Positions 607-34,073 of a stretch of DNA of 64,000 nucleotides are shown here, piece after piece. The stretch is from an uncultured Verrucomicrobiae bacterium (GTDB taxonomy: Bacteria; Verrucomicrobiota; Verrucomicrobiia; Chthoniobacterales; JAATET01). Made by a program: the position numbers and the translations under genes. The stretch is from NCBI GenBank assembly GCA_963761705.1, contig CAVXHK010000004.1, positions 80,632-144,631 on the forward strand, in the 5' to 3' direction. The notes beneath the pieces are model-generated. The model did no database searches. It saw only the letters and a list, made by a program, of their open reading frames with translations, and was not told the DNA's origin. Positions within the stretch are counted from its first letter, which is position 1. Each line of letters starts with the position of its first letter.

Positions 607-620
607 GTAGACGGTTTCCT
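607..620. promoter_or_regulatory. Possible LacI-type operator (weak copy, GTAGACGGTTTCCT)
   Basis: The right half matches the recurrent A[AG]GAAAnnTTTCCT motif. It lies 11 bp upstream of the LacI start, between divergent genes. Confidence 0.35.
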
Positions 621-631
621 AGAATATCTGT

Positions 632-1663
632 TTGAAGATTCGATTGAAGGATGTCGCCGAGCGGGCGGGAGTGGCGGTCAATACGGCCTCGACTATTTTG
701 AACCGTCGACCGAATTCCTGGTCCTCGGCGGCGACCGTGGCGCGTGTTTTCGATGCGGCCAAAGAACTGGGTTATCGGCCGAATCGCGCTGCGCTGGGTC
801 TTCGGCTAGGGCAGTTCAATTCGTTCGGACTCCTGATTCCAGATCTGCAGAATCAATATTTCACTCTCGGTGCCGAACTCATGGAGGACCATCTGCGTCG
901 GCACAACGCCGATCTAATTATCGAAAGTTCGCGCAATAGCACGGATCTTGAGGAGTCGATTCTTTCGACGTTGTTCGATCGACAGATCGACGGACTGGTG
1001 GTCTGCCTGATCGACGTCGAGCGCAACCGGGAGTTGCTGCACCGCTTAGCGAAAAGTCATCCCATCGTCCTGATGACGGAAAAAATGGACGCCGCTTTCG
1101 ATCTCGACTTGGTGCTGGCGGATTACACCGAGGGCATGCGGGAGAGCGTGAGAGCACTTTCGGAATATGGTCATCGGAGGTTTCTCTACGTGCAGGCGAC
1201 GGTGCCGGGGCAAGCAGCGGGACACAGGCCGGAAGTGTTTTTCCGCAGTTTGACCGAGTTCGGATTGTCATCCGACTCCGACTTGTTGATTCAGAGTGGG
1301 ATCAGTCACGACGAGGTGATAGCGCGGATGGCGAGCGTCTTTGCTGAGGCTAAGGTAAAAAGGCCGACTGCGATTTTTGCGCACAATGACGTGACGGCCA
1401 TCAGCATCATGCGAGCGGCTTACCAAGCCGGATTGCGGGTGCCGGAGGACGTGTCGATTGTCGGCGTGGATGACAGCCCGATCTGTTCGAAGCTGCCGGT
1501 GACGCTGTCGTCGATTCAGGTGCCGATGAACGAGATCACCGAAGAAGTGGTGTCGTTGCTCATTCGCGGTCGGGATCGGTCGATTGCGCACTCGCCGCGG
1601 TCGGTGGTCTTTCAGACCCGGTTCGTGGCGCGGGAGAGTGTCGGACCAGTGCCTGGATCGTAG
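632..1663 (+). CDS. LacI-family transcriptional regulator
   Basis: N-terminal HTH (LKDVAERAGVAVNTASTILN), YRPN hinge, and a sugar-binding domain with PTAIFAHND and VPEDVSIVGVDD motifs. Confidence 0.95.
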   Translation: MKIRLKDVAERAGVAVNTASTILNRRPNSWSSAATVARVFDAAKELGYRPNRAALGLRLGQFNSFGLLIPDLQNQYFTLGAELMEDHLRRHNADLIIESSRNSTDLEESILSTLFDRQIDGLVVCLIDVERNRELLHRLAKSHPIVLMTEKMDAAFDLDLVLADYTEGMRESVRALSEYGHRRFLYVQATVPGQAAGHRPEVFFRSLTEFGLSSDSDLLIQSGISHDEVIARMASVFAEAKVKRPTAIFAHNDVTAISIMRAAYQAGLRVPEDVSIVGVDDSPICSKLPVTLSSIQVPMNEITEEVVSLLIRGRDRSIAHSPRSVVFQTRFVARESVGPVPGS

Positions 1664-1691
1664 CAGCCTCTCCGGTGGAGGGTAGCGGAGG

Positions 1692-3947
1692 TCACCGCCG
1701 CGCCGCTGCAAATTTGAACGAATGCACACCGCCTTTCAGGCGGACTGCTGGTTCCACCAAACCTGCAATCGACGCGTCGGCGGTGACGCCGGCGGGAAGT
1801 TCGATTTCCCAGCGTATCTCGTCGCCGTCTCGTTGCCACTCGCTGCGGATGATGCCGTGCGGGGAGCGGTGCGTGCAGCGGACGTAGTCAAGCTGGCGGA
1901 CAAGTTGCGGGCGCATGTTGAGATGCCGGAATCCGGGATGGTCTGGGTCGGGTCGGATGCCGCCGATGCCTTCGGTGAACCAAGCGGCAAAGGCACCCTG
2001 CATGGGATGATTGCGGGAGCGCTCGATCATCTCGGGGTGTTGGGCTAGGTCGAAGAAGGTCTCCCAAAAGGTCGTGCCGCCCTGCGCGAAGTGATGGCGG
2101 AAACTGGGTTGGCCGTCGGATTGGAGAAGGCGCCAACAGACGTCGTCGTAGCCGTGGGATGCGAGGGCGTCGAAGAGATGGCGGAGGCCGTGGATGCCGG
2201 TGTCGAAGCGGTAGTCGTTGGCGCGGACGCGGGCGGCGAGGGCGGCGGCGACTTGGGCGTCTGCGCCGTCGGGACAGAGGCCGAAGGTGAGCGCCAGGGT
2301 GTCTGCCGCCTGGGAACCGAAGGCGTCGTCGGTATGAAACTCGGCGATGAAGCGGGACCGAATGTTTGCTGCCCGGCGGTTGAGGGCGCTGGCTTCCTTG
2401 GCGCGATCGAGCGCGCGCGCGAGTCGCGCGAGGCAGTCGGTTGCCTGGAAATAAAGCGCGGTCGACGTGAGGGCGACTGGGGTGGCGATGGGCTCGACGC
2501 GGCCCGGGGGGCACCAGTCGCCGAATCCTTCGTGGATGATGCCGTCCCTCGCGATCCCGTCGAGATAGCGGAGGAGGGCGGCAAGTTTGTCGAAGTGTCG
2601 GTCGGCGGAGCCGATCTCGCCCTTGTAGAAGTGGAGGTAGTAGGGAATGAGGACGAGGGCGACGGCCCAGTCGGGGTTCGCCTGGCCGCAGCGGCGTTTG
2701 CCGGGGGCGATGTTGGCGGGCACATCGGGGTGGCCGTTTTCCGCGCCGCGTCCGAGTGAGTTGACGATGTCGTCGACGTATTTCTCGAGGAGAGTGGTGG
2801 CGTCCCAGTTCAGCAGGATGAACGGAGCGCAGACGTGCGCGTCGCCGAGCCAACCGCAGCGTTCGCGTCCGGGGCAATCGGTCGGGAGGCCGTGAAGGTT
2901 GGTCCGCTGGGTCCAACGGGCCGTCGAGTGGATGCGCTCGAGCAGGGGGTCCGAGCACTCGAACGAGCCGGCGACGGACAGATCGGAATGAACGACGATG
3001 CCGGTGAGCGCCTCGGCGGGGGCCTCGCCGGGAAACCCGGTGACCTCGACGTAGCGGAAACTGTGGCAGGTAAATTGGGGTTCCCAGACTTCCTCGCCGC
3101 CACCGCGACAGATGTAGCGGTCGGTCTGGATGGTGCGGGTGTGCCAGACGCCGGTCGTGAGGGGGTTGATGGTGCCGTCGGGGTCGAGGACCTCGGCGAA
3201 GCGCAGGCAAATTTCGGTGCCCGCCGGCGCGGTGACGCGGAGCCGGCACCAGCCGGAGAAATTTTGACCAAAATCGAAAACGCTTATGCCTGGCAGCGGT
3301 CGATTCACGCTGACGGTCGCAATCTCCTCGACCCGGCGGCTGGGAGGGAGGAGTTGGGGGCGCAACTCGGGAGTCAGTGGGGCGACTTCGGCGGCGGGTT
3401 GCCAATCGGTGATTTCCTCGCGGCGGGCGTCGTGGACGTTGCCGCCGTAGACACTATTTTCGAGGAGCGGGCCGGAGGTCGAGACCTCCCATGACGAGTC
3501 GGTGCCAAGGGTCTCAACGTTGCCGTCCGCGTATTCGAGTCGGAGGAGCGCGATCAGTCCCGGATCGCCGTAGGGTGCGATTTCCCACACGCGGTCCTGC
3601 GAAAACCAGCCGTTGCCGAGGAGGGCAGTGAGGGCATTTTCGCCTTCGTCGACCAGAGCGGTCACGTCGAAGGTCCGGTAGAAGGCGAAGATGTCGTAGT
3701 CGGTCTGGACCGGATCGAGGACGGCGTCTTCGACCGGGTGGTCATTGAGAAAAAGCTGACCGTATCCGGGGGCGGCAAAGTGGAGTCGCGCGGAAATCAG
3801 ACCGGGCGAGGCGATGAATTTCCGCCGAAGCAGGGGGGCGCTGCCGTCCGGGGTGGGCGCGCCGATCCATTGGGCGTCGACCCAATCGGGTTCGTCGGCA
3901 CCGAGTGGGTTCGAAAGCGATTCGCAGAGGGGCTTGGTGGTGCTCAC
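1692..3947 (-). CDS. GH78 alpha-L-rhamnosidase-family glycoside hydrolase (no signal peptide)
   Basis: Motifs FDFGQNFSGW, FRYVEVTG, PTDCPGRERCGWLGD, FGDWCPPG, TTFWE and SRNH. Confidence 0.92.
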   Translation of the reverse strand: MSTTKPLCESLSNPLGADEPDWVDAQWIGAPTPDGSAPLLRRKFIASPGLISARLHFAAPGYGQLFLNDHPVEDAVLDPVQTDYDIFAFYRTFDVTALVDEGENALTALLGNGWFSQDRVWEIAPYGDPGLIALLRLEYADGNVETLGTDSSWEVSTSGPLLENSVYGGNVHDARREEITDWQPAAEVAPLTPELRPQLLPPSRRVEEIATVSVNRPLPGISVFDFGQNFSGWCRLRVTAPAGTEICLRFAEVLDPDGTINPLTTGVWHTRTIQTDRYICRGGGEEVWEPQFTCHSFRYVEVTGFPGEAPAEALTGIVVHSDLSVAGSFECSDPLLERIHSTARWTQRTNLHGLPTDCPGRERCGWLGDAHVCAPFILLNWDATTLLEKYVDDIVNSLGRGAENGHPDVPANIAPGKRRCGQANPDWAVALVLIPYYLHFYKGEIGSADRHFDKLAALLRYLDGIARDGIIHEGFGDWCPPGRVEPIATPVALTSTALYFQATDCLARLARALDRAKEASALNRRAANIRSRFIAEFHTDDAFGSQAADTLALTFGLCPDGADAQVAAALAARVRANDYRFDTGIHGLRHLFDALASHGYDDVCWRLLQSDGQPSFRHHFAQGGTTFWETFFDLAQHPEMIERSRNHPMQGAFAAWFTEGIGGIRPDPDHPGFRHLNMRPQLVRQLDYVRCTHRSPHGIIRSEWQRDGDEIRWEIELPAGVTADASIAGLVEPAVRLKGGVHSFKFAAARR

Positions 3948-5020
3948 GGGTGATTGGGCTCGAAGAGGGTCAGAATAAGGTCGCGATAAACGCGCATGAG
4001 GTAGTCGTTGGGGTGGTTGAAGACGTTGCCGCTGATGTCGGCGAATTTTTTGCGGGCGACGATTCGCTCCGAGACGATGCCTATGTCGACGAATGCGGTG
4101 TTGGGATGGGAATCCGCGAGTTCGCGGAGTGCGCTGGCGTAGCCTTTCCGGAGCTCGTAATTGGCTTGAATCGACTCCGGGTTGGGCAGGAACGAAGCAA
4201 CCAGAATGATGCTGAGGTCAGGGTTGGGCGCGCGGAGCTTTTTGACGATCAGCTCGACGTTCGACCGGTAGCGCTCGAGCGGATTATCTTGACTTCCGTC
4301 GTTCATCCCGAAAGCGATCACGGCGAGATCGGGCGATTTCGCAGCCAGGGCGTCGCTCTGCCCAGCCCCCCAACCCGATACGGTGCCGCCCACCGACGGA
4401 TTCTCGAGGGTGACGTTGGCTTTGGGAAATTGCTCGCCCAACGAGTCGGCGAACTGTTGGGCGTAGCCGGGGCGCTCGGGGGGCGCGGCGGGGGCGAGGC
4501 CCGAAGCTTGCGCTCCGACCGAGATGCTGTCGCCGAGGACGGCGAGCGTGAAGGGACCACCTGCCTGGAGTTTGGCGATGGCCGCCGGGACATTGCCGCT
4601 GGTCGCTCCTTCGAAGATTTGGGTCCAGCGGTATGGGCCTTCAGTGGGCTCGTAGCGAATCTCGACGTCGTAGCCGAGGTGCTTGGTGTTGCCGCCGGGA
4701 TTATAGAAGACTCGGCCCTGAGTGTCGGCGAACCGGTAGAGGGGCGGGGCGGGCTTGTCGGAATAGAACGGGAGGAGCGGGATGCGGGAGTCTTCAGTTC
4801 GGGTGAGCGTGCGACCCGCGAGCGTGAAGTCACGGCCTTCCTCATAGGTCTCGGAATGATCGGCTTTGAGCACTTCGACCTCGCCGGCGGGCTCGAAGAG
4901 CAGATGAACGGTCGGTGGTGTCTGTGCGTCGGTGAAGACGCCGGTTTCCCATTCCAGCTCGGTGGCAGAGAGCGAGAGGACGCTGGTCAGGAGAAAGAGG
5001 ATAGAAAGATGGGCGGTCAT
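3944..5020 (-). CDS. Secreted SGNH/GDSL-family hydrolase (probable carbohydrate esterase)
   Basis: Signal peptide, LGDSIS block I, FGMND block III and NHPND block V. Overlaps the GH78 gene by 4 bp. Confidence 0.88.
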   Translation of the reverse strand: MTAHLSILFLLTSVLSLSATELEWETGVFTDAQTPPTVHLLFEPAGEVEVLKADHSETYEEGRDFTLAGRTLTRTEDSRIPLLPFYSDKPAPPLYRFADTQGRVFYNPGGNTKHLGYDVEIRYEPTEGPYRWTQIFEGATSGNVPAAIAKLQAGGPFTLAVLGDSISVGAQASGLAPAAPPERPGYAQQFADSLGEQFPKANVTLENPSVGGTVSGWGAGQSDALAAKSPDLAVIAFGMNDGSQDNPLERYRSNVELIVKKLRAPNPDLSIILVASFLPNPESIQANYELRKGYASALRELADSHPNTAFVDIGIVSERIVARKKFADISGNVFNHPNDYLMRVYRDLILTLFEPNHP

Positions 5021-5029
5021 AGGGTTGGT

Positions 5030-6538
5030 CTAAATCGGTTCTGGAATGGTTTCGCCGCGGCGGGCTTCGAGTTGGCGACGGGTCTCGGCGGATCGCTCGC
5101 GTGAGATTGGGTAAAACCAGAAGGCGGCGATCGCGATAATAAATCCGACGACCTGAAATCCGACGACCATGTCCTTCATGGCGAGGCCGGTTTCCAGCGA
5201 GACGCCCGAAATTTTGGCCTCGGTTGCATCGAAGCCGGAGACTTTGAGCAGGATGCCGCCGATGACGAAGGTGAGAGCCTGGGAAGCCTTGAGCGCGAAG
5301 CTGATGGCGGCGCTGAACATGCCTTCGCGGCGACGACCGGTGACGAGTTCATCCTCGTCGCAGATGTCGGCGACCATCGAGCTGACCATGAGCCAGCACC
5401 CCTGCATCCCGAGGGAGGAGATGATCGTGGGTAGGAAAATCATCATCGGCCAGCGCGGATCGAGCGCCCAGTAGGAGGAGGCCGCTCCGACGAGGCCGAG
5501 GCTGAGGCCGATGATCATGGCTTTGCGCTTGGTCGTGTGGGCGGAGACGGCGATGACCAGGAACATGCTGACGTAGGAAATAACGGCCCCGAGCGTGCCG
5601 GCCTGGCCGGTGAGGTTGCCGGTGGCGAGTTCGTTGCCGCCGAACACGTAGTAGAGGAAGACGAAGGGCAGCAGGCTGGCGGCGCTGAAGATGGCGACGA
5701 TGACGACGACGTAGGCGACGAGCAGGATGGCGAAGGCGCGGTTGGCGAGCGTGCAACGAAGGGCCTCGAACAGGCGGATGGGGGGCTGCGTCTGCGCGTC
5801 CGGTCGCTCGGGGCAGGCGACGACCGGGGCGAGGCCGGTCACGAGGACAATGAGAGCGACCGCGATGCTGACCCATACCGCGCCCTCGAATGCGTCGGCA
5901 AACTCGAGCGTGAAGGGGCCGAAGTCGCCGCCGAGGCAGAATCGGTAGAGCCACGGAATGGTCATGCTGCCGAAGAGGCCGATATACATTTGCCAGGCCA
6001 GCACGCGGGTGCGCTCGTCGTAGTCGGGCGTGAGTTCGTAGCCCATGGCAGTCCACGGGATCATGAAAAGGGTATAGGCCAGCGAGTAGAGGCAGCCGAG
6101 TGCGGCCAGATACCAGAAGGGGCCGTTGGCATACCACGGAGCGTGGATGGTGTCGGGGAACGGCGGCGTCCAGAAGAACGGCATCATGATCGCGCAACCG
6201 ATGACGCCCGGGATGATGAATGGCTTCCGGCGGCCCCAGCGGCTTTTGAAATTGTCCGAGAGGTTGCCGATGATGGGGTCGGTGATCGCGTCGAAGAGGC
6301 GCGGGATGAGCAGCGCCATCCCGGCGAGGATGGGATCCATCCCGAGGTAGTTGGAATACAGCAGCAGCCCCAGCGAGTTGAGCAGATTGTAAATGTAGTT
6401 CGACGCGAGGCCGCCCATACCCCAGGCGACGCGAGTGGGGAGGGGGACGCAGGGTTGGGGAGTGGTCGTGGTGACGGAGGGAATCTCGGCGGCGGGGGGC
6501 ACGCGGGGAGCGTGGCAGGGATGGATCAAGGAAACCAT
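5030..6538 (-). CDS. GPH-family (MelB-like, MFS) sugar:cation symporter; start uncertain (GTG at 6502 possible)
   Basis: Motifs RLFDAITDPIIGNLSD, SRWGRRKPF, ELTPDYDERT and DICDEDEL..G.RREG, plus multiple TM helices. Confidence 0.92.
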   Translation of the reverse strand: MVSLIHPCHAPRVPPAAEIPSVTTTTPQPCVPLPTRVAWGMGGLASNYIYNLLNSLGLLLYSNYLGMDPILAGMALLIPRLFDAITDPIIGNLSDNFKSRWGRRKPFIIPGVIGCAIMMPFFWTPPFPDTIHAPWYANGPFWYLAALGCLYSLAYTLFMIPWTAMGYELTPDYDERTRVLAWQMYIGLFGSMTIPWLYRFCLGGDFGPFTLEFADAFEGAVWVSIAVALIVLVTGLAPVVACPERPDAQTQPPIRLFEALRCTLANRAFAILLVAYVVVIVAIFSAASLLPFVFLYYVFGGNELATGNLTGQAGTLGAVISYVSMFLVIAVSAHTTKRKAMIIGLSLGLVGAASSYWALDPRWPMMIFLPTIISSLGMQGCWLMVSSMVADICDEDELVTGRRREGMFSAAISFALKASQALTFVIGGILLKVSGFDATEAKISGVSLETGLAMKDMVVGFQVVGFIIAIAAFWFYPISRERSAETRRQLEARRGETIPEPI

Positions 6539-6542
6539 TCCT
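6529..6542. promoter_or_regulatory. Candidate LacI-type operator AGGAAACCATTCCT
   Basis: Near-perfect pseudo-palindrome in the divergent transporter/sulfatase region; the motif recurs upstream of other genes. Confidence 0.6.
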
Positions 6543-6629
6543 ATTTTGGCGAGTCCTCACGTCTGGTTCGTTCACGAGCCCGCTAGATTTGCTTGCCCGA
6601 GCGGGAGAAGATCGGTTGGATAAGAAACG

Positions 6630-8084
6630 ATGCATTTCCGTGAATTCGCGATCTCTGCTGCCATTGCGGTCTGCGCGGCGTTTTCCTTGCGGGTCGGGGA
6701 GGCGGCACCAACGGTGAAGAACGTGGTGATCATTTTCGCGGACGACCAGGGGGCGCATCTGTCGGCGCTGGGGACTCCGGGGATCGAGACTCCGAACGTC
6801 GACGCGCTGGCGGCGCGGGGGATTTTTTTTACGAAAGCGTATTCGGTGTCGGCGTCGTGCTCGCCGAGCCGGAGTTCGCTTCTCACCGGGATGGTGCCGC
6901 ACTCGCACGGGCATTGGCGGAATACGGTGACGCCGACATTGGACGAGCCGGAAGTCGAGTTCACGCGGGCGGGGCGAACGATCGACACGGTGGGGATTCA
7001 CGAGGACATCACGACGCTGAACGAGGTGTTGGGTGAGGCGGGGTTCTTTCGTGCGATCACGCAGAAGCTGCACCTGAGTCCGCCGTGGAAATACCCGTTC
7101 GACGCGCGGGACCCGGTGGGGACTAAGCCGGCGGAGTTTCGACGGGTCATCGGGCGGTTCATCGAGGAAGCGGGTGAACGGCCGTTTTTCATTCAGGCAA
7201 ACATCGCGGCAACGCACCGACCGTTTCCGGATCATCTGCGGGATTTCGATGGGGATCTGCCCGCGCTGGCCGAGATTCCAGTTCCCTCTTACCTGCCGGA
7301 TACGCCGTTGATGCGGAAGGATCTGCGGGAGTATTTCGGCACGGTCGAGTTGGCGGACCGGTGCGCGGGGGCGATCCTGGAAGCGCTCGATGACGCGGGC
7401 GTGCGGGGGGAGACGCTGGTGATTTACACTTCGGATCAGGGGGAGGGCTACCACCGGGCGAAGGCGTCGGCTTACGAGGGCGGGGTGCACGTGCCGCTGG
7501 TAATCAGCGGGCCGGGGGTGCGCGAGGGAGTGGTGACGAATCAGTTGGTGTCCGGGATCGATCTGATGCCGACGATCCTCGCTTTTTTGAAGCTTCCGAT
7601 TCCCGCGACGGTGCAGGGAATTTCGCTCCGGCCCTACCTCACGGGGGCGGGAGGTGAGTGGGACGAGCGGGACTACGTTTTCGCCGAGCACAATTCGCAC
7701 GGGCCGAATCCGGCGGAGATCTATCCGAGTCGGGCGGTGACGGACGGGCGGTTCTATTACATCGAGAACCTGATGCCGGCGAAGACCTACGAGTTGCCTG
7801 CAGACCTGCGGCAGTCGGGGCCACCGTGGTTCAACGGCAGCTACGACGCGGCGGTGGCGGCGCGGGAAAGTGATCCCGAGCAATACGAAAAGCTCCGGGA
7901 GCTGCTCGATGGGCGCGCGCCGGAGGAGCTTTACGATTTGGAGAGCGATCCCGGGCAGTTGGCGAATCTCGCTGACGACCCGGCGTCGACGCAGAAGCTA
8001 AAGGAACTGCGGGGAGCCGTCGCGGAGTGGCGGCGGGAGACCGGCGATATCGAAAGGGACCCGCGCGAGATCGAGCGGCGGTGA
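6630..8084 (+). CDS. Secreted Cys-type sulfatase (sulfamidase-like)
   Basis: Signal peptide, FADD, CSPSRSSLLTG (CxPxR), TSDQG and EELYDLESDP. Confidence 0.93.
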   Translation: MHFREFAISAAIAVCAAFSLRVGEAAPTVKNVVIIFADDQGAHLSALGTPGIETPNVDALAARGIFFTKAYSVSASCSPSRSSLLTGMVPHSHGHWRNTVTPTLDEPEVEFTRAGRTIDTVGIHEDITTLNEVLGEAGFFRAITQKLHLSPPWKYPFDARDPVGTKPAEFRRVIGRFIEEAGERPFFIQANIAATHRPFPDHLRDFDGDLPALAEIPVPSYLPDTPLMRKDLREYFGTVELADRCAGAILEALDDAGVRGETLVIYTSDQGEGYHRAKASAYEGGVHVPLVISGPGVREGVVTNQLVSGIDLMPTILAFLKLPIPATVQGISLRPYLTGAGGEWDERDYVFAEHNSHGPNPAEIYPSRAVTDGRFYYIENLMPAKTYELPADLRQSGPPWFNGSYDAAVAARESDPEQYEKLRELLDGRAPEELYDLESDPGQLANLADDPASTQKLKELRGAVAEWRRETGDIERDPREIERR

Positions 8085-9358
8085 GGACGGTCGCGGGAAA
8101 AAGGTTGCGGGAGGTGGCGGGGATCCGCGGGGAGATCGAGCGATACGTCGCGAAGCGGTGGGATCGGACGTGGCCGGGGCCGGGGGCGGAGCATTTGATT
8201 CCGATCGCGGCGCGCTACGTCACCCCCGCCGTCGGCGGGCATTTGCAGCACCTCTTCTATTGGGACTCGTATTTTGCGGCCCTCGGACTCGTGCGGCAGG
8301 GGCGGCTGGATCTGGCGCGGTCGACGCTGGAGGCGTTGGTCGAGCTGTTCGAGCGGTTCGGGTTCGTGCCGAACGTGAACGTCGAATCGGAGGCGAACAG
8401 ATCGCAGCCGCCGATGCTCTCGGCTTACGTGCGATTGATTTACGAGGCGACGGGCGACCGGGATTTTTTGGCGGGCAAGATCGACGTCCTGCGGCGGGAA
8501 TACGATTTCTGGATGCGGGAACGGTGGGTGGGCGAGTGTGGGGTCAATCGGTTTGGGCACGGGGCGACGGAGGATTATTTGCTGCGGTTTTACGATCATT
8601 GCCTGGTGCCGCGGCTGCAATTTCCGGTGGATGCTCCACCGTCGGAGAAGCGGCGGTTGGCGTCTCATTACCTGACCGAGGCCGAGTCGGGGGCGGACTT
8701 TTGCTCGCGATTTCTGGGTCGGGCGGGGGATTTCGCGGCGGTCGAGGTGAACGCGTTGCTCTTCGGGTATGAGCGAAACTTGGCTTGGTTCGCGGGCGAG
8801 CTTGGCTCGTTGGGCGAGGCCGAGACGTGGAAGGCGCGGGCTCGGGAGAGGCGACGGCGTTTTTCCGACGTGTTCTGGAACGAGACGCGGGGGGCGTTTC
8901 TGGATTGGGACTTCGTCGGTGGTGTGCACTCACCCGTGTTGACGCCTGCGGCGTTCTTTGCACTGTGGACGGGTGTGGCGACGGCTCGGCAGGCGGAAGG
9001 GATGGCGGAGAATCTTGCGAGCTTGGAAACGGATCATGGTGTGAAAGCCAGTGATTGGACGCTGCCGGGCCTGGAGTTGCAATGGGATGCCCCGTTCGGG
9101 TGGCCGCCGTATCAGTTCGTCGTGGCGCGGGGGCTTCTGAATTACGGGTTCCGCGAAGCGGCGGAGCGGATCGCTGTCAAGTATTGCGGACTGGTCGAGC
9201 GGGTTTTCGCGGAAACGGGTGAGTTGTGGGAGAAATACGACGTGGTCGCGGGCGGGCTGCGGAGCGCGGAATACGAGGTGCAGACGCAGGTCGGGTGGAC
9301 GGCTGGGGTGTATCTCGATTTTTCTTCCCCGGACTATACGTGCTCGGGAAGGACGTAA
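8081..9358 (+). CDS. GH37 trehalase-family glycoside hydrolase (no signal peptide)
   Basis: Motifs FYWDSYF, NRSQPP, AESGADF, QWDAPFGWPP, LWEKY and EYEVQ..GWT. GTG at 8081 overlaps the sulfatase stop (GTGA). Confidence 0.88.
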   Translation: MRTVAGKRLREVAGIRGEIERYVAKRWDRTWPGPGAEHLIPIAARYVTPAVGGHLQHLFYWDSYFAALGLVRQGRLDLARSTLEALVELFERFGFVPNVNVESEANRSQPPMLSAYVRLIYEATGDRDFLAGKIDVLRREYDFWMRERWVGECGVNRFGHGATEDYLLRFYDHCLVPRLQFPVDAPPSEKRRLASHYLTEAESGADFCSRFLGRAGDFAAVEVNALLFGYERNLAWFAGELGSLGEAETWKARARERRRRFSDVFWNETRGAFLDWDFVGGVHSPVLTPAAFFALWTGVATARQAEGMAENLASLETDHGVKASDWTLPGLELQWDAPFGWPPYQFVVARGLLNYGFREAAERIAVKYCGLVERVFAETGELWEKYDVVAGGLRSAEYEVQTQVGWTAGVYLDFSSPDYTCSGRT

Positions 9359-9579: not shown

Positions 9580-12500
9580 TCACCAAGTTATGTTCAGCGT
9601 CGTTCGTTCGTTTGACATAGTGGCGAGCGAAACGATCTTGATCCACAGGTGTCCGGCGGGAGCTTTGTAAAACCCCGAGGTCGGCGAAGTGCGGAGCGCG
9701 GTCAGGGAGCTTTTTTCCGTTGCGTCCGATACCGTGCAGCTCGGAAGGGACGCCAGATCGTTGAAGCGCAAGACCGTCTCATCACCCAAGGCGGTATCGC
9801 CGAAGACCAGATGAATTCGATTTCCCGGAGCGGGGTTCGCGTGAGCAATCGTGTAGAAAAAGTCAGCGTCGTTGACGATGACGGGGAAAAGGTGTCCGGG
9901 GAACTGAGTTTGATTGGTAAACACCAGGGGGCTGCCCGGACTGGAGAAGCGTTCACGACGAATGGTCGCAACGGGCGGTGAAAGTCGGGTCGCTGCATTG
10001 TAATATTCCCAGTAAAGCCGGGCAAATTCCTGATTGGAGACAACGACGTTCTGCCAGCTTGGTGGTGCCGGAAATTCGTTACCGGTCGTCAACATCGGAT
10101 GGTTGGTGACCATGCTGGCGAGGGGATGCCCGGTGAGGGAGCCATCCTCGTCGATCAGGATCTTCGCCCAGATGCGGGCTTCCGTGGCACTGCCGGCACC
10201 TTGATAGTTGTTGAAGGCAAAGCGAGGAAATAAGTCGTAGGTCGTTCCGCTGAGGATCCAGTTCATGCTCGGAACAGCTCCTCCCGCAGTGCGCGCGAGA
10301 TTGGCGGGTGCCGCGCCAAAGCCGACCAAGTGGCAATCGCGGAATCGAGCCGGGCCGTCGTAGAGGGCAATGGCGTAACGCGCGGTGGCGGCAGGCCAGA
10401 TGGCGTTACCACTGTCGGCGACGAGTAGACTGTTACGAAGTTCGAGGTAGGCGGCGAAGACAGTGGCTTCGCGGTTATCCACTAGCATGCAGTCGACGAA
10501 CTCGACGTTGTCCCGGCTGTCGCCGAGTCCGGAGTAGAGTGCGATGTCGTTGCCCCACGCGGTGAAGCGCTCGAGGGTCTGGACGGATGTGATGTTCCAG
10601 GAAAGATTCTTGATGAGCTCGAGCGTGTTCACGTCGACGCGGTCGAATATGTCGAGAGCGAGTCGGCAACTGTGAGCAACGTTGTTGCGGAAAGAGCCGA
10701 GAGGTTCCTCGAAGGGCTTTAGTCCGGCAAAGCGGGGATCCGTTGCGGAATGACCGGTTGGGGAAGTCGGAAAGGCAAACCAGTAGGCCGATCCCGCCGT
10801 CCCCGCGACGACGTTGCCGATGAATTCGTTATTGGGATTGGTGATCCAGAAGCTGGACGGTGATCGATTTTGGAACTGGTCGTGGGAATTGTCGGTTGGG
10901 ATGATTTCCTCGCCGACGATGGGGCGGCGGGTGTTCAAAACCAGATTGGATTCAAAACGATTGAATCGCTCGGACCCATCTTCGAGAAAAATTCCATGGC
11001 CGACGTGATCGAACGCGACGTTTCGGGACACGTCGACGGAATTGGTCCCGTGGATCGTGACGGCACGATTGAACGAACGGTGAATGCTGGAATCTCGCAC
11101 GAACTGCCCGAGGCCCTCCTCGGCGAGCATGTGCCAATGGATGGGATAACGACCGACGCGTTGTTTCTGGCCGAGGTGGTCGAACTCCACGTGGGAAAAT
11201 CGACCCACTCCCGGTGCGGTGCACGCTGGACAGTGCACGCCCATGATCGCAACGTGTCCACCGTAGGACGATCCCGGCGATAATGCGGAGGTGATGCGCA
11301 CATTTCGGGTGAGGAGGCCGACTTCAGCGCTGAGGGGGACGGTCCAGGTCGTCGTCTCGCCATTTTTGGTCCGAGAATACGTTTCGGTGACACCGAGATG
11401 CCGGTGCGCGAGGGGAGCCGCGAAAACGACGCGGGTCCGGTTGTTGGGCTCCGCAGAGAGGCTGGAGATCATCCGAGTCTCGGCCTCGTTCCAGGCCCCG
11501 TCGTTGGCGGAGCCGACCGCGCTCGTGGGGGCGATCACGATCTGGTCGCCCACTCCCCACTGAAGCTGGGAACCCTCGACGATGAGGAAATTCTGGCCAG
11601 CCGGGGCGGTCGCCGCCAGCCGGGTCCAACTCGTCTGAGGAGCGCCGTGGAAATCGATGATGCCGCCATCACGAGCGCCGAGAAATTTCGAGCCGAATCC
11701 GAGGATGTTTTCCGTATTGCCGAGATCGCCAGTGAGCTGGAGCGTGAATTCCCCGGAGATGGGCAGGGTTTCCGTCCCGGCGGTGAAGGCCGCATATCCG
11801 CCGTGGACGAGCGCCCAACGGGTCTGGAGGGAACTGGTCGCAGCGGGCATCACATCCAGCGAGCCTTCGATCTGGAGGGTGGCTGCAGCGCAGGCTCCGT
11901 CGAGGGCCGTGGGGACCTGCGGGGGGATGCGAACGTTCTGGCCAGACGTCGGGATGCCGGATGGTGACCAGGAACTGGCCGACTGCCAATCCGCCATGGG
12001 CTCGACTCGCACCAAGTCGACCAAAGCGGAATCCGTTCCCGTGCTCAGGCCACTGAAGCGGACCAGAGCGGGCCCGCTCGTCACTCGGAACGGGGCCGTC
12101 GAGAGTGTTTGCCCCGTCAGGTCAGACTCGAGTTGCTTCTGAAAAACGCGTAGGCCGTCGACCTCGACGGCGATGGATTGCGCGTTGGCCGTCCCGTTTT
12201 GAATTCGCTGGCTGGCCCAGAAGACGAGTCGGTACACGCCGGGGGTGAGTGTGATCGAAGATTCAAAGTAGCCTTCGCGCTGAATGAACGCGGCGTATTC
12301 GCCTGCCGGGAGGTTCGGGTGCCCGTCCGCATAGGCCTGACCTTCTTTCACGATCCCGGAATTGCCGATGAAGGTCCAGCCTGCCCAAGCGGGACGATGG
12401 ACGAAGGTCGCAATGCTGGTGTCCTCGAAGTTTGCGTTCGGGGCGGGCATCATTGCTCCGGCGAAGAGCGCCGTCTTGTTCGGGGTCGGCGGTGAGGTGT

Positions 12501-12661: not shown

Positions 12662-12675
12662 AGGAAAGGTTTCTT
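12662..12675. promoter_or_regulatory. Candidate LacI-type operator AGGAAAGGTTTCTT
   Basis: In the divergent G8/sulfatase intergenic region; matches the recurrent motif. Confidence 0.6.
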
Positions 12676-16481: not shown

Positions 16482-16491
16482 TTTATTTTTT

Positions 16492-22062: not shown

Positions 22063-22063
22063 C

Positions 22064-22117
22064 GGAGCGGGGACGTCTCGCCTCCGTGAATTCGTGAGGT
22101 CGAGTCGTCTTCACTCC
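22064..22117. repeat. REP-like inverted doublet
   Basis: GGAGCGGGGACGTCTCGCCTCCG followed by an inverted variant (reverse complement GGAGTGAAGACGACTCGACCTCAC); a related copy is at 31755-31777. Confidence 0.45.
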
Positions 22118-22128
22118 CTTTGAAATTG

Positions 22129-25100: not shown

Positions 25101-25314
25101 TCGGATCAAGTGGACGGTCACACTCCCGCCGAACGTGGACGGCTGGGCGGAGGTGCCGGTCGAGTGGGCGCGAGATCTGACGTTGGACGGCGACCAACCG
25201 GAGACGGCGGCGGCACCGAGCGGACGGAGCGAACGCCATTGGGTGCGCGTCGAGCTGGAGCCGGGCCGACACGAATTCGTTCTCAGACAGGATGCACAGG
25301 ATGGACAGGATTGA
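22129..25314 (+). CDS. GH78 alpha-L-rhamnosidase-family glycoside hydrolase with an inserted WIW beta-sandwich (CBM67-like)
   Basis: N-terminal FN3-like WDSGRV domain, ARWIW insert, YDFGENLVGW, FHGFRY, PTDCPQRDERMGWLGD, YGDWC, GATTIWELW and MNSGNH. Confidence 0.92.
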   Translation: MTIITHLRTDLLVEPRGIGNPTPTFTWELSDPDAGAWRQSAWRIVVAETLKDAAAGRGTLWDSGRVADTETALIDYLGSPLTSRMRCWWRVTCWGAAGDEITSEVASFTIGLLEEAEWSGYWIGLDSAPETPPDPLVGARWIWTEARAVPGTVIFEKRFTLAEPFAGELWGLADDEGEVEINGLPLCQLARAQGNTDLYPLPLAVPVPSLPAGENVIRVTVRKRHARDPDAGAIARLLLGGREVIDSGKGQETALFATKHRRIEGGVEVATDGTWRQIAEDGETAVRELGSYGIAPWHLVTAMEYPNLSARYLRREFRVRGMVDRAVLYLSGQGLSEPWINGTRIGGEEVLSPHLSDPGVRVHYRTHDVTELLCEGANALGCVLGNGRYFAPRKRVPFPMETYGCPKLLLQLEVSYSDGTTERIVSDPSWRLNTEGAIGWNNEFDGEHYDARRDDPAWCRPGFDDADWGEARLVAAPMGKLAAQVCAPIRRHETVPVRESWTTKYGTTIYDFGENLVGWCRGTLRGKLGTRLVLRHAETLESRDALSVENLRSAQATDFITLGEGETRFEPKFVFHGFRYAELRGEAEVVELEAIYVHDDVPATGSFECESEVLNKIVEATARGIRTNCRSMPTDCPQRDERMGWLGDRAGGAPSEMFLFDLANFYRKWLDDIRDAQAPNGCIPDIAPAFWRMYQDNVTWPSVAVFIPHWLHRHYGDDGVVAQNFDALARWLDHMSRYLLDGLIDRDLYGDWCVPPEEAHLIFTLQEGRKTHSVILASTYFARDLEIAAAFADRLGRDDLAAKWRARRAEITTALNARFYDEATGSYDNGAQTASVLPLAFDLAPEGEERKVFNALVTKMTATGAAELGTGLVGTRSLLRTLTAYGRADVARDLATREEYPGWGYMIGQGATTIWELWNGDTAAPFMNSGNHVMLTGDLIAWLFEDVAGIQAAEPGFRRVRFRPHFVFESVDCRHRSIRGEIGSRWMKRDGRIKWTVTLPPNVDGWAEVPVEWARDLTLDGDQPETAAAPSGRSERHWVRVELEPGRHEFVLRQDAQDGQD

Positions 25315-25383
25315 TGAAGTGGAATCTTCGATGGCGAAGCCGTCGCTTGTCTCTCAATCCTGAGAATCTTGTAAATCCTGTCT
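25285..25383. repeat. Inverted repeat built from 9-bp ACAGGAT-containing units
   Basis: Left arm AGACAGGATGCACAGGATGGACAGGATTGA; right arm TCAATCCTGAGAATCTTGTAAATCCTGTCT. Confidence 0.7.
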
Positions 25384-25391
25384 AAACCATC

Positions 25392-26786
25392 ATGTCCTCC
25401 CCCATTGCCCCCCCGGACACCCCGCCGCGCAAGAAGGTGCCATTGCGCGCCAAGGCTGCCTTCGGCGCGGGCGGCGCGGCGGACAACATCCTCTACAACG
25501 GGATGAACACGCTCGTGTTGCCGATCTTCAACGTCGGCTTGGGCGTCGATGCGGTGAAGCTCGGTTACGCGATGGGTCTGCCGCGCATCCTGGACGCGAT
25601 CACCGACCCGCTTATCGGCAATCTCTCCGACAATACGCGCAGCCGCTGGGGCCGGCGGCGACCCTACATTTTCTTCGGAGCCATCTTTGCCGCGCTGCTG
25701 CTTGGACTGCTCTTTTGCCCGCCGCGGTCGCTCGGCGAGTCGGGTCTCTTCTGGTGGTTCCTCGTGGTGTGCTCGCTCTTTTACGTGGCCTACACGTTTT
25801 TCATGATCCCGTATTCCGCGTTGGGACTCGAGATCACGGACGATTACGACGAGCGAACGCGCGTGTTGGCGTGGCGGCCTTACGCGGGTCTTGCGGCGGG
25901 CTTGGCGATCCCGTGGCTCTACAAATTGTGCTTCATCATCGGCCCGACCGAGGCCGAGGGCGCGCGGACGGTGAGTTGGATCATGGCTGCGGGCGCAATC
26001 GCGCTCGGCGTGATCCCGGCGATTTTCCTGAGGGAAAGATCCCGACCCGACGGTGAAAAGTCGATGCCGCTGTTGCGTTCGCTCAAGACGACGTTTCGCA
26101 ACCGCGCGTTTCTGACACTGACCGGGTCGGTGCTCTGCATTTTGCTTGGGCTGTTTCTAGCGAGTCCGCTCGGGCTCTACGTGAACCTCTTCTACATCTA
26201 CGACGGCGACAAATCCGCCGGCGCGACGCTCGCTGGCGCGGCCGGGATGCTCACCCTCGCTGCGGGCTTCCTCGGACTGCCCTTCGTGACGTGGCTCTCG
26301 GTGCAAATCGGAAAGCGCCACGCGATGCTGGTGATGCTCGGTGTTTGCTGGGTGGCCGTTGCGGCTACGTGGTGGCTATTTACTCCGGCGGCTCCGTGGC
26401 TGTCGTTGATCCCGAATTTCGTGATCGGCTTCGCGTTGAACGGTTGCTTTCTCATCGGCGTGTCGATGCTGGGCGACGTCTGCGACGCGGACGAACTTGC
26501 GACCGGGCTGAGGCGGGAGGGGATTTATTCGGCGTCGATGGAGTTCGGGAAAAAGATGGCCATTGCGCTCTCGACGTTGCTGAGCGGTTACGTGCTGCTG
26601 GCGACGGGGTTCGATCAAAAGGCGGCCACGCAGGCACCGGAGACGCTGCTTTGGCTGCGGATCGGGTTCATTGTCGTGGTCGGCGTGGCTCTGATTATCT
26701 CGGCCGCAGCGATCTGGTTTTACCCGATCTCGCACGAGCGGGCTCGGGAGACGCGCGGGTTGCTGGATGCGCGGGCTGGCGGGTAG
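25392..26786 (+). CDS. GPH-family (MelB-like, MFS) sugar:cation symporter
   Basis: Motifs RILDAITDPLIGNLSD, SRWGRRRPY, EITDDYDERT and DVCDADEL..G.RREG; paralog of the 5030 gene. Confidence 0.92.
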   Translation: MSSPIAPPDTPPRKKVPLRAKAAFGAGGAADNILYNGMNTLVLPIFNVGLGVDAVKLGYAMGLPRILDAITDPLIGNLSDNTRSRWGRRRPYIFFGAIFAALLLGLLFCPPRSLGESGLFWWFLVVCSLFYVAYTFFMIPYSALGLEITDDYDERTRVLAWRPYAGLAAGLAIPWLYKLCFIIGPTEAEGARTVSWIMAAGAIALGVIPAIFLRERSRPDGEKSMPLLRSLKTTFRNRAFLTLTGSVLCILLGLFLASPLGLYVNLFYIYDGDKSAGATLAGAAGMLTLAAGFLGLPFVTWLSVQIGKRHAMLVMLGVCWVAVAATWWLFTPAAPWLSLIPNFVIGFALNGCFLIGVSMLGDVCDADELATGLRREGIYSASMEFGKKMAIALSTLLSGYVLLATGFDQKAATQAPETLLWLRIGFIVVVGVALIISAAAIWFYPISHERARETRGLLDARAGG

Positions 26787-26816: not shown

Positions 26817-27866
26817 CTATTGCCCGCCGACCGTTGTCCGCCGGATGATGAGTTCGTCGGTGGCGACCTCGCGGCGGACGGGAGTCGTGGTTTTTTTCTC
26901 AATGTGATCAAGGAGAACCCGAGCCGCGAGGGCACCCATTTGCTCGACCGGTTCGGGGAGAGTCGTGATGCTGATGGCAGGATGGTGGGTCAGGGGCAGG
27001 TTACCCATGCCGATCAAGGCGATGTCTTCCGGAACGCGGTAGCCGCGTTTCTCCAATTCTTCCAGAGCGGGGATGGCGAGACCATCGTTGAGCGCGAGGA
27101 CCGCGTCGGGGCGCGGACCGGGTGAGTCGAAAAATTGATCGAGGGCAGCGCGGATGATCGCGTCGGGGACGTTCGAGGCCGGGGGCCGGGCGATCCAACG
27201 CGCGGGTAGGTCGAGGCTGCGGGCGGCGATGGCGGATTGGAAACAATCGAACCGGTGGCGGGTCGACTCGCCCGGAAGGTCAATGCCGAGGAAGGCAATG
27301 CGTCGCCGACCGAGGTCGCAGAGGTGCGCGACGGCCCTTTCGATGGCGGCGCTGGCGTTCCACGTCACGGAGCTGACCTCGTCAGCGAGTTCGGTCAGTT
27401 CGTCGGCGATCAGGACGATGGGAGTCCCGGTGGATCGGATAAGGCGGTAGAGGTCTTCGCAGCCGCCGGTTGGAAAGGTGATGAGGCCGTCGTCGCGCCG
27501 CCGCAGGGAGGAGAGTAGTTCCTTCCGGTTGCGCTCGATGTCGAACCGGTGCGTGGCCACGAACGGAACGTAGGGCGTGGGGTCGAGGACGGATTGAAGG
27601 CCTTCCATCACGGCCTCGGCCCAATCGAGTTTGAAGTTGCCGACGATGACGCCGATCATCTCGCTGCGCTGGCTCTTCAGGCGGCGGGCGGATTGGTTGG
27701 GGATGCAATTGAAGCGGCGGGCGGCGTCCTGGACCCGCTCGATGGTGGCGCGCGAGATGCCGCGCTGCTCGGCGATGCCATTGAGCACGAATGAAATGGT
27801 TGCGTGAGAGATGCCCAGTTTGCGAGCAAGCTCGACGCCGGAGATGGGTCGTGGAGCTGCTTTCAA
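26817..27866 (-). CDS. LacI-family transcriptional regulator
   Basis: HTH (ELARKLGISHATISFVLN), IPNQSAR hinge, PDAVLALND and VPEDIALIG. Confidence 0.93.
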   Translation of the reverse strand: MKAAPRPISGVELARKLGISHATISFVLNGIAEQRGISRATIERVQDAARRFNCIPNQSARRLKSQRSEMIGVIVGNFKLDWAEAVMEGLQSVLDPTPYVPFVATHRFDIERNRKELLSSLRRRDDGLITFPTGGCEDLYRLIRSTGTPIVLIADELTELADEVSSVTWNASAAIERAVAHLCDLGRRRIAFLGIDLPGESTRHRFDCFQSAIAARSLDLPARWIARPPASNVPDAIIRAALDQFFDSPGPRPDAVLALNDGLAIPALEELEKRGYRVPEDIALIGMGNLPLTHHPAISITTLPEPVEQMGALAARVLLDHIEKKTTTPVRREVATDELIIRRTTVGGQ

Positions 27867-29280: not shown

Positions 29281-29284
29281 GGTC

Positions 29285-31852: not shown

Positions 31853-32520
31853 AAACACCCTCACCCCACACGCTTTGGCGTCTGCTGAACGGGCAAGCCA
31901 GAGGCTTGCGTTATTTTATTCTACTGCCGCTGGCGTTGCACGCGGCGGACGGGCCGACGCTCCCGAACCCGAGTTTCGAGGAACCGTCGATCCTGGAGCG
32001 ACCAGCCTACCTGACGCCATCGATGCCGACGTTTGCCGAGCATCGGTCGGAGCTGGGGTGGAGTTTTGGATTTTTTACCGGGATATGCCGGGAGGGCGTA
32101 TCGTTCGCCGAGGGAATCGACGCGGCGGAGGGGAGTCAGGTCGCGTTCCTGCAGGGCGATCCGGATACGAGCGGGCGCGACTTGAAGCTGCAGAGCGTCT
32201 TCGGCGTGGACGTCATTGGGTTGGAGGTAGGCCGGAAATACGCGGTGTCGTGGCAGCAGACGGCGCGGGTGTCGGACGCTGGTCAGGGGGCGCTGACGGT
32301 CTCGGTCAGCCCGGCCGACGGGAAAACGCCGCCGACCGTGCTGGAGGATCGCAAGGACGTGATCGCGCAGGGCGAGTGGGAGACGCGCCGCTACGAATTC
32401 GTCGCGAAGGCGGAATCGATGCGGCTCAACTTTCGCCACCACATCCCGCACCCGGAAAACGCGAATCCGAACAGCGAGACGACGCTCATCGACGACGTGC
32501 GGATTGAGAAGGCACGATGA
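31849..32520 (+). CDS. Secreted hypothetical carbohydrate-binding-like (DUF642-like) protein
   Basis: Signal peptide, LPNPSFEEP, EGSQVAFLQG and C-terminal LIDDVRI; ATGA overlaps on both sides. Confidence 0.75.
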   Translation: MKTPSPHTLWRLLNGQARGLRYFILLPLALHAADGPTLPNPSFEEPSILERPAYLTPSMPTFAEHRSELGWSFGFFTGICREGVSFAEGIDAAEGSQVAFLQGDPDTSGRDLKLQSVFGVDVIGLEVGRKYAVSWQQTARVSDAGQGALTVSVSPADGKTPPTVLEDRKDVIAQGEWETRRYEFVAKAESMRLNFRHHIPHPENANPNSETTLIDDVRIEKAR

Positions 32521-33995
32521 GCGCGGCGTTGATCGTGCGGCGTCGCGCGCTGGAATTCGTGGTCGCGGTGAGCGTGGCCGTGGTGAATTTCGCGGTTCAG
32601 GCCGGGGAGCCGCACCGCAATGTCGTTGTCATCTTCGCGGACGACATGGGCTTCGACCTGTCGTGCATGGGCACGCCGGGGATCGAGACGCCGAATCTCG
32701 ACCGGATGGTCGCGGCGGGAACGCTTTTCACCCGCGCCTACGCGGCTGACAGCGTCTGCTCGCCCAGCCGCGGGGCGTTGCTCACGGGAACGTTCTCGAA
32801 TTGGAATGGGTTGGATCGGCTGACTGCGAATGGGGGCCTGAAATTCCCGTCCATTGCCGTGAAGCCGTCGAAGCCGGAGACCTTCCGATCGGCGTTGCGC
32901 GAGGATGTGCCGACCTTGGTGGAGGTCCTGTCGATGCACGGCTTTTATCAGGCCATCACGCAGAAGACGCACGTCCAGCCGATGTGGAAATTCCCGTTCT
33001 CGCGGGGATTCGATTACCACAACAAGCCGGAGCAATACGATCGGCTGATCGACCAGGTGAAAACCGGTGCCGAAGGACGACCGTTCTTCCTGCTGGCCAA
33101 CGTGAGTCCGCCGCACCTTCCCTTCGACGCCCACCTCGAGCCGAACGGCCTCGTCGACGAGGCGGGGCGGCCAAAGAACGTCGATCCCGACGAGATCGGC
33201 GTTCCGGCCTACCTGCCGGACACGCCGGCGATCCGGGCGGACCTGGCGCGATATTTCGCCTGCGTCGAGTTGGCGGATTCGTGCGTCGGAGCGGTGATGG
33301 ACGGTCTGGAACGAAACGGGCTTCTGGAATCGACGCTGGTGGTCTTCAGTTCAGATCACGGCATCGCCTACCACCGCGGGAAGGTGTCGGCCTACCCGGC
33401 GGGTCTGCACGTGCCTCTGATCTTCCAAGGTCCGGGCGTGGCGGCGGGAAAGCGGTCAGCCGCGCCGGTCAGTCTGGTGGACGTGATGCCGACGGTCCTG
33501 AGTTATCTCGACATCCAAACCCCGGAGACGGTCCAGGGCACTTCGCTCTGGCCGATCCTGGACGGAAGCGCGGGGAAACTCGCGGGCCGACCTACCATTT
33601 TTGGAATGACGAACGAGCATTTCCTTGGGCGGATGGTCACGGACGGGCAATTTTATTACGTCCGGAATCTCACGCAGCCGCGCGGGAGCTGGGACAATCC
33701 GCCGATGAACGCGGACCTCTGGCAAGAGAAACCGTGGGGAAACAAGTCCTTCGCAGCGACCGTTGCGGCGAAGAACGAATCTCCGCTCGCCTATGAATTG
33801 TTGCGGCAGCTCGTCGAGGGCGATCTTCCCGAGGAGGAACTCTACGACCTCGAAGCCGATCCGTGGGCCACGGAAAATTTGGCCGCCGATCCCGAGCAAG
33901 CGGAAATCCTACAGAGGCTGCGTGATGAGATGAGCAAATGGCGCGAGATCACCGACGACGAAACTTATCTTCAAACGCGGACTTCGCCGAAATGA
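32517..33995 (+). CDS. Secreted Cys-type sulfatase (paralog of the 6630 gene)
   Basis: NVVVIFADD, GTPGIETPN, VCSPSRGALLTG, AITQK.H..P.WK.PF (shared with 6630) and SSDHG. Confidence 0.93.
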   Translation: MSAALIVRRRALEFVVAVSVAVVNFAVQAGEPHRNVVVIFADDMGFDLSCMGTPGIETPNLDRMVAAGTLFTRAYAADSVCSPSRGALLTGTFSNWNGLDRLTANGGLKFPSIAVKPSKPETFRSALREDVPTLVEVLSMHGFYQAITQKTHVQPMWKFPFSRGFDYHNKPEQYDRLIDQVKTGAEGRPFFLLANVSPPHLPFDAHLEPNGLVDEAGRPKNVDPDEIGVPAYLPDTPAIRADLARYFACVELADSCVGAVMDGLERNGLLESTLVVFSSDHGIAYHRGKVSAYPAGLHVPLIFQGPGVAAGKRSAAPVSLVDVMPTVLSYLDIQTPETVQGTSLWPILDGSAGKLAGRPTIFGMTNEHFLGRMVTDGQFYYVRNLTQPRGSWDNPPMNADLWQEKPWGNKSFAATVAAKNESPLAYELLRQLVEGDLPEEELYDLEADPWATENLAADPEQAEILQRLRDEMSKWREITDDETYLQTRTSPK

Positions 33996-34029
33996 AGTCT
34001 TTCCGTGAAACACCGAATACCCGCCTCGT

Positions 34030-34073
34030 AAGAAACCTTTCCCATTGACGCGGGGCGCGCCCGGCCCGACGGT
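34030..34073 (+). promoter_or_regulatory. Candidate operator AAGAAACCTTTCCC next to a putative sigma70 promoter for the Verru_Chthon cassette
   Basis: Motif copy at 34030-34043, TTGACG (-35-like) at 34045-34050, and a weak -10-like GACGGT after a 17-bp spacer. Confidence 0.55.

Follow-up and report, generated by a model that had tools for sequence, protein, structure and literature searches.

A candidate LacI-family operator and its predicted regulon in a sulfatase- and rhamnosidase-rich gene cluster of an uncultured Verrucomicrobiae bacterium

The locus and its predicted features

The stretch of DNA considered here, referred to as the window, comprises 64,000 nucleotides from an uncultured Verrucomicrobiae bacterium (C4:80632-144631 of genome G000) and carries a gene cluster in which Pfam and NCBIfam models recognize two GH78 and one GH106 rhamnosidase-family genes (the GH106 Pfam match being weak, yet above its cut-off), five sulfatases, two GPH-type symporters and two LacI-family genes. 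It had been proposed in a first-pass annotation of this DNA that a palindrome of LacI type recurs upstream of these genes and that one LacI-type regulator, possibly the gene starting at position 632, coordinates a transporter, sulfatases, a G8 protein, an isomerase and a pilin-like cassette, a proposal that is supported by the comparative tests described below. The six sites of the palindrome, the genes behind them and the adjoining features are as follows; genes were called with a simple hexamer model, some starts being corrected by eye, and the limits of the operons are inferred.

598..625, plus strand: sigma-70-like promoter of lacI (16-bp spacer, 10/12), ending 6 bases before the TTG start
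607..620, unstranded: half-site in the spacer of the lacI promoter, 0.18 bits
632..1663, plus strand: LacI-family regulator, likely cognate factor (PF00356, 44 bits with a cut-off of 27; PF13377, 93 bits)
1692..6502, minus strand: predicted operon of a GPH-type symporter (5030-6502), a GDSL esterase (3944-5020) and a GH78 rhamnosidase-family gene (1692-3947)
6529..6542, unstranded: site 1, between the symporter operon and a sulfatase, centre CC, leave-one-out rank 2
6622..6635, unstranded: additional, weaker site spanning the start codon of the sulfatase, centre CG, 13.7 bits, rank 5 with the relatives' matrix
6630..9358, plus strand: predicted operon of a sulfatase (nearest solved structures a sulfamidase and S1_8A) and a trehalase-like glycoside hydrolase
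9580..12591, minus strand: G8 and CEMIP beta-helix protein, predicted start 12591
12662..12675, unstranded: site 2, 70 bases 5' of the G8 gene, abutting a minus-strand -35-like hexamer, centre GG
12776..12789, unstranded: site 3, about 120 bases 5' of sulfatase 12908, centre GC
12908..14911, plus strand: sulfatase with an additional N-terminal domain
15014..15027, unstranded: site 4, separated by 14 bases from the isomerase start, centre GC
15042..19572, plus strand: predicted operon of an L-fucose/L-arabinose-isomerase-like gene and a GH106 rhamnosidase-family gene (16492-19572)
19572..19585, unstranded: site 5, its first base being the final one of the GH106 stop codon, and 17 bases separating it from the ATG at 19603; centre GG
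19603..26786, plus strand: predicted operon of a small protein of no family, a sulfatase, a GH78 rhamnosidase-family gene and a second GPH-type symporter
26817..27866, minus strand: second LacI-family gene, lacking an upstream site and differing in its recognition helix, probably not the cognate factor
34030..34043, unstranded: site 6, just 5' of a -35-like hexamer, with 69 bases between it and the predicted ATG at 34113; centre CC
34113..44096, plus strand: predicted operon of four genes with weak resemblance to Verru_Chthon cassette D, B, C and A, an unknown gene, a sulfatase and DUF5722

Seven predicted transcription units are headed by these sites, and none was found in the block 26817-33995. 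For the isomerase at 15042 and for GH106 no solved relative was found. The spacing between promoter and TTG indicates that the lacI 632 transcript is probably leaderless.

The palindrome in the window and in the genome

Available comparisons give good support to the view that the palindrome is a real operator of an apparently undescribed group of Verrucomicrobiota LacI proteins. Each of the six 14-mers occurs once in the 64 kb, exactly at the coordinates first reported for it, and just these six positions lie within two mismatches of the six-site consensus. The motif is concentrated: 10 positions of the 3,505,368-base genome lie within one mismatch of the consensus, and six of them are the window sites, found inside 28 kb and at gene starts. 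Since the consensus was drawn from the sites themselves, a leave-one-out ranking was run with the training sites excluded, in which the held-out sites took genome-wide ranks of 2, 2, 3, 2, 2 and 3. The operator is an even palindrome, and a symmetric 16-bp matrix (de novo searches return widths of 16-20 bp) puts the six sites within the genome's top seven together with C1:1681030; the eighth position, C1:201532 (20.2 bits), is 355 bases 5' of an unrelated-looking gene, and lower ranks fall below 18 bits. As had been claimed for all copies, the six sites are intergenic or at a gene start, 14-120 bases from the starts of their targets and thus within about 140 bases. Their centre dinucleotides are CC, GG, GC, GC, GG and CC in order, CG being found in none of the six. 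The extra site at 6622, the top-scoring site at C1:1681030 and the presence of three rhamnosidase-family genes among the targets had been overlooked; the first of these (13.7 bits) has a CG centre and spans the start codon of the sulfatase.

The recurrence had been extended to 33 kb on account of a weaker copy at 607, which is rejected here as a full site, so that the six exact sites span 27.5 kb instead. This copy has one good half-site, scores 0.18 bits, a value equalled or surpassed at 3331 genome positions, and ranks 11725 or 8322 with matrices built from relatives. It lies inside the spacer of the 598-625 promoter, the best promoter match near lacI 632, and is a possible weak autoregulatory site, not significant alone. 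The GC content is 57% in intergenic DNA versus 62%. A standard promoter scan returned 4 and 1 sites versus 3.4 and 2.1 in shuffles, so that 598-625 alone is regarded as a strong promoter call; among calls made without a null, a -35-like hexamer adjoins each of sites 12662 and 34030, and a weak spacer call takes in 19572.

The 632 protein and the motif beside its relatives

The structural model of the 632 protein (predicted local distance difference test score 89.3) shows a helix-turn-helix (helices 5-12, 16-24 and 33-46), a hinge helix (52-59) and a periplasmic-binding-protein-like core (PF13377, 93 bits; PF00532, 62 bits), and aligns to PurR with a template modelling score of 0.82. Conserved Ala and Leu residues in the hinge of LacI proteins play a role in the minor groove, and the hinge residues Y48, P50, A54 and L57 are invariant across 59 rows. 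At E 1e-50 or better 326 relatives were retrieved, those listed being mostly 43-48% identical and those with names coming from Luteolibacter and Haloferula; one protein 86% identical to it is encoded on an 894-kb contig. The 632 protein falls in a 47-row clade with a Shimodaira-Hasegawa-like approximate likelihood-ratio value of 95 by a quick tree method, and the second LacI of the window lies outside it. Genome G000 holds six LacI-domain matches; another LacI gene, at C2:144854-145846, has one in-frame TGA inside its alignment.

For comparison, 39 relatives' loci were assembled, of which 30 have titled records (29 Verrucomicrobiota and one labelled Blastochloridaceae), along with 122 control loci of distant LacI genes, mostly from other phyla and many actinobacterial. 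The DNA-binding head is near-invariant across the relatives, with a VNTAST recognition helix followed by RPNSW, a conservation that is partly selected because a head pattern had served to find 38 of the 39 loci.

De novo motif search and genome-wide matrix scanning, both of which had been named as checks in the first-pass annotation, came out in its favour, the palindrome being recovered at the relatives and the window being enriched. A search upstream of the 39 relatives that included no window sequence returned the same palindrome, its centre leaning towards CG (centre dinucleotides were judged by eye), with a log-likelihood of 114 versus 23-30 in three shuffles. About 18 of the 39 relatives have their own upstream site of at least 12 bits, and 15 of these 18 (L020, L028 and L040 being excluded) were used for a relatives' matrix, which ranks the six window sites 11, 14, 29, 145, 220 and 1984 and places 6622 fifth. 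Neutralising the two centre columns, which was decided on once the data had been seen, brings the window sites to ranks 2, 4, 5, 8, 68 and 71. Positions 1-45000 of the window receive 4 of 31 genome hits with the relatives' matrix (expected 0.4, P 6.5e-4) and 7 of 78 with its centre-neutralised form (expected 1.0, P 6.8e-5). Conversely, the window matrix above 13 bits gave 13 hits, in 10 of the 39 relatives' loci (569 kb for all 39), versus 3 in the 122 control loci (1494 kb) and 0-7 in 20 local shuffles.

Upstream of L033, L040, L043 and L104, dyads with the same half-sites and a shorter centre (14 or 15 bp) were seen by eye, and operator spacing may be flexible in the 632 family.

A rearranged cluster and an exchanged regulator

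Two natural experiments bear on the pairing of motif and regulator. Three genomes of one genus in another order (G347, G415 and G153, counted as one observation) carry a rearranged homologous cluster, on the same contig as the regulator in G347 and G415, with a symporter at 50%, a GH106 at 44% and sulfatases at 49-53% identity, together with GH78, DUF5722 and a prepilin-motif gene. Of six exact matches in G347 to the degenerate pattern ADGAAWSSWTTCHT (whole-genome control 3), three are found no more than 36 kb from the regulator. All seven matrix hits in 80 kb are non-coding, versus 22% of bases, when the first 150 bases of each open reading frame are reckoned as non-coding. These hits precede the regulator, the symporter, GH106, a pilin-led sulfatase operon and DUF5722.

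The second case is found within the genus of the window itself, where three of five congeners (G002, G004 and G005) have kept GH106 (63-72% identical) and the symporter, next to which stands another LacI with 32-34% identity and a recognition helix of its own. Exact matches to the motif number 0, 0, 0, 1 and 1 genome-wide in the five congeners, and the 43 upstream regions of the three congener clusters yielded a different palindrome (log-likelihood 129 at 16 bp versus 24 and 28 in two shuffles), which exceeds 12 bits in 19 of the 43 regions, divergent pairs being counted twice. This congener operator (L010-L015; G004, G002, G005) measures 16-20 bp, has a CG centre and stands before GH106, symporter and sulfatase genes.

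Motif and regulator thus appear, from these genome comparisons, to travel together. The suggestion that 632 encodes the regulator is borne out in that the same motif emerges de novo at its relatives, precedes homologous targets in another gene order and is a different one beside a different LacI.

Association with rhamnose genes

Genes for rhaA, rhaI-like, rhaEW or rhaB-like proteins lie near 14 of the 39 relatives and near none of the 122 controls (16 and 1, respectively, when rhamnosidases are included), and held-out sites precede rhaI-like genes, rhaA, glpX and GH106. Taken together with the three rhamnosidase-family genes of the window, this makes a regulon concerned with a rhamnose glycan likely. 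A site of at least 12 bits was found upstream of rhaA at four of nine loci where the regulator is adjacent, at one of six where it is elsewhere and at none of 29 where none was found (3/9, 1/6 and 3/29 with the centre neutralised). Fisher's test of 4/9 versus 0/29 gives P 0.0017, with the reservations that kin are not independent and that the class without a regulator comes from a shallow search in which at most five candidates were scored per genome.

The best site outside the window, C1:1681030, falls inside ppdK, near codons 12-16; this gene, whose name was assigned by eye on the basis of its sequence, is the third of rhaA-glpX-ppdK (C1:1678347-1684417, L197), which run in a single orientation with a divergent AraC gene adjoining. 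The site is absent from the same place in both readable congeners (of the other three, two were without a hit and the third was out of frame). Whether ppdK belongs to the regulon through a functional site in its first codons or carries a chance match is evenly balanced.

Two further associations were observed: mqo (malate:quinone oxidoreductase) is clustered with rhaEW and rhaB-like genes at L026, L028, L030, L044 and G000:C2:7600-13640, and a cytosine-permease-like transporter, which may carry rhamnose or an oligosaccharide, flanks nine of the 39 relatives of the 632 regulator.

Proposed mechanism and alternative explanations

On the sequence evidence gathered here, it is considered likely that the palindrome is the operator of the LacI-family protein encoded at 632-1663, which would repress seven units until a sugar, probably derived from rhamnose, binds it. 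The 632 protein would bind the palindrome as a dimer at the seven predicted transcription units and, once bound, would block RNA polymerase; basal activity of the enzymes and symporters would free sugar from the glycan and let it reach the core of the regulator, and binding of this sugar, probably rhamnose or a rhamnose-containing oligosaccharide, would release the protein from DNA and turn the genes on. Binding of the sites by the 632 protein is the firmest of these steps and seems very probable, closely followed by repression through a polymerase block, which has a good probability because the sites overlap start codons, adjoin -35-like hexamers or fall within promoter spacers. A rhamnose-derived inducer is somewhat favoured.

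Several observations that bear on the choice of sugar weigh against the proposal. Core rhamnose genes are missing from the neighbourhood of 25 of the 39 relatives. The neighbour of rhaA is an AraC gene both in G000, where rhaEW-rhaB adjoins a DeoR-like gene, and in the genus of G347. As rhaA is without a site in either, the LacI protein appears there to govern polymer genes and not the monomer pathway. In Haloferula sargassicola (G452), a cultured strain by its record title whose motif marks an apparent arabinose/arabinan regulon, there are 11 exact matches versus none in controls; several CG-centred sites (loci L301, L304, L305 and L307) precede araA, GH43, GH51 and GH39 genes, other matches precede unrelated or unknown genes, and no copy was found before rhaA or rhaEW-rhaB, all of which indicates either that the sugar varies within the 632 family or that the motif is shared with another factor. 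Exact matches show no excess in G453 (1 versus 1 in controls) or G455 (0 versus 0), and a weak one in G454 (9 versus 5). It is less probable that the regulator and sites are as proposed and the inducer is L-arabinose, a sulfated fragment or whatever sugar the 15042 isomerase converts; beyond the Haloferula sites and the unmarked rhaA of G000 with its other regulator, the gene behind site 4 resembles fucose and arabinose isomerases and is without a solved relative. Against such an inducer stand the core rhamnose genes at 14 relatives, where none was seen at controls and where held-out sites lie directly upstream, and the G000 araA gene (C1:1881883) is not among the top hits listed.

As to the regulator itself, the points that tell against the 632 protein and its palindrome are that its own gene is preceded by a half-site only, that three window sites rank only 145, 220 and 1984 when the centre columns are kept, that the window matrix has no hit above 13 bits in 29 of the 39 relatives' loci, and that the controls behind these comparisons are mostly from other phyla and kin are not independent. 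The poor site of the 632 gene, the second LacI inside the cluster, the six LacI-domain matches of G000 and the fact that different LacI proteins can have such CG-centred dyads in common could all be accommodated if the sites belonged to another factor, either the protein of 26817 or a regulator encoded elsewhere. This is nevertheless very unlikely, as the motif accompanies the 632 family from one order to another and gives way to a different one where another LacI has taken that family's place. The second LacI is unsupported as cognate factor: there is no site upstream of 26817, its sole close relative in 400 genomes (45% identical) gave no hit over 15 kb and does not share its upstream sequence, and the second LacI lies outside the 632 clade with a different recognition helix. 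It is also improbable that the 632 protein acts as an activator, or as a dual regulator at some promoters, by binding just upstream of -35. In its favour, dual LacI-family regulators such as FruR and PckR exist (PMC4052901), and relative to the best promoter call the midpoint of site 12662 falls near -40, that of 34030 near -43 and those of many relatives' sites near -48 to -57. Against it, such calls are consensus matches without null or mapped starts, the 607 half-site and 19572 lie inside promoter spacers, 15014 is 14 bases before a start and 6622 spans a start codon. Finally, since the consensus was first drawn from the sites and intergenic DNA is more AT-rich, the words might have been chance AT-rich promoter DNA or a general promoter element. 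This explanation, to which a close to negligible probability is given, is largely refuted by leave-one-out ranks of 2-3 among 3.5 million positions, by the de novo motif, and by the congener counts of 0, 0, 0, 1 and 1, as a general element would be genome-wide.

Neighbouring genes

By its site at 34030, the pilin-like cassette is assigned to the predicted regulon. Its four adjacent genes match the D, B, C and A models of the Verru_Chthon cassette (TIGR02596, 02598, 02599, 02600) at their N-termini, with 27, 38.6, 27.4 and 17.7 bits, all well under the cut-offs of 70, 51.4, 256.5 and 332.3; the block is thus cassette-like only, and two of the four genes carry a prepilin N-methyl motif. The small protein at 19603-20196 resembles, by eye, the additional N-terminal domain of sulfatase 12908-14911, neither having a Pfam family. 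Divergent from the second LacI, 28011-33995 holds a PEP-CTERM gene, a GH65-like/MGH1-like hydrolase, an unknown gene and a sulfatase, with no copy of the motif; these are possibly the second LacI's own targets, and the intergenic stretches scanned before 34 kb gave no candidate palindrome for this block. Between 44100 and 53000 the GC content falls to 52-55%, and a 1279-residue open reading frame (44779-48618) and others match neither Pfam nor NCBIfam and are uncalled by the codon model; this is probably foreign DNA.

Comparison with known systems and significance

The 632 protein shares the helix-turn-helix, hinge helix and periplasmic-binding-protein core of LacI/GalR local sugar regulators (PurR, CcpA, RbsR), but is just 21-27% identical to the top solved LacI structures and far under the cut-off of every NCBIfam equivalog. 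In the LacI-family survey PMC4052901, operators are described as even palindromes of 16-22 bp, mostly within 140 bases of starts, less than 1% of sites lie in coding DNA, and an autoregulatory site is found for 72% of regulators; the even 16-bp palindrome, the distances and the local sugar cluster are alike here. Even palindromes were reported for 1251 of 1303 regulators, with a central CG in 1173, a different centre in 49 and a degenerate one in 29 (PMC4052901). The six window sites lack the central CG of these 1173 out of 1251, and the 632 group fits the "degenerate centre" minority, CG being the consensus centre in the relatives.

LacI-family rhamnose regulators have been described as RhaR in Actinomycetales, RhiR in Rhizobiales and Erwinia and RhmR in Chloroflexus (PMC3870299). 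With these the 632 system has in common the LacI control of rhamnose or rhamnose-oligosaccharide genes and the occurrence alongside it of AraC- or DeoR-type regulators for the monomer pathway, while their motifs, compared by description only, are given as 20-bp palindromes from lineages other than Verrucomicrobiota. The term "Verruco" is absent from PMC4052901 and from the main text of PMC3870299, as available, the logos and supplements of the latter being where a similar motif could be held. Verrucomicrobiota have been portrayed as specialist consumers of sulfated rhamnose- and fucose-rich glycans, and the sulfated methyl-pentose utilisation loci of that work resemble the window in having GH78 and GH106 together amid sulfatases (PMC8857213); its available text mentions no LacI or operator ("laci" 0 and "regulat" 1 occurrence). 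A pilin-like locus tied to glycan use has a precedent, by description only, in the MUL2 locus of Akkermansiaceae, a glycan-binding pilus for which the available text gives no LacI (PMC13174399).

No description of a 632-type regulator or its motif was found in the literature searched, which covered few subscription journals, nor was a regulator or operator for Verrucomicrobiota sulfated-glycan genes found in it. While the mechanism of such a sugar switch is textbook, the regulator group is apparently undescribed and belongs to a phylum whose gene regulation has barely been studied. A more far-reaching scenario, in which a Verrucomicrobiota-specific LacI family with a centre-tolerant operator runs the glycan programme, the pilin-like cassette is a sugar-inducible glycan-capture pilus, the gluconeogenic gene ppdK was captured in this genome by an operator newly arisen in its first codons, and congeners swapped the regulator along with all operators of the homologous cluster, is speculative and rather unlikely as a whole. 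In conclusion, the exchange of regulator and motif on a homologous cluster in congeners would represent a compact case of regulon rewiring, the regulator-operator pair would allow co-induced genes to be listed by motif scan, and the motif would tie the pilin-like cassette, DUF5722, the G8/CEMIP protein and the 15042 isomerase to one glycan programme.

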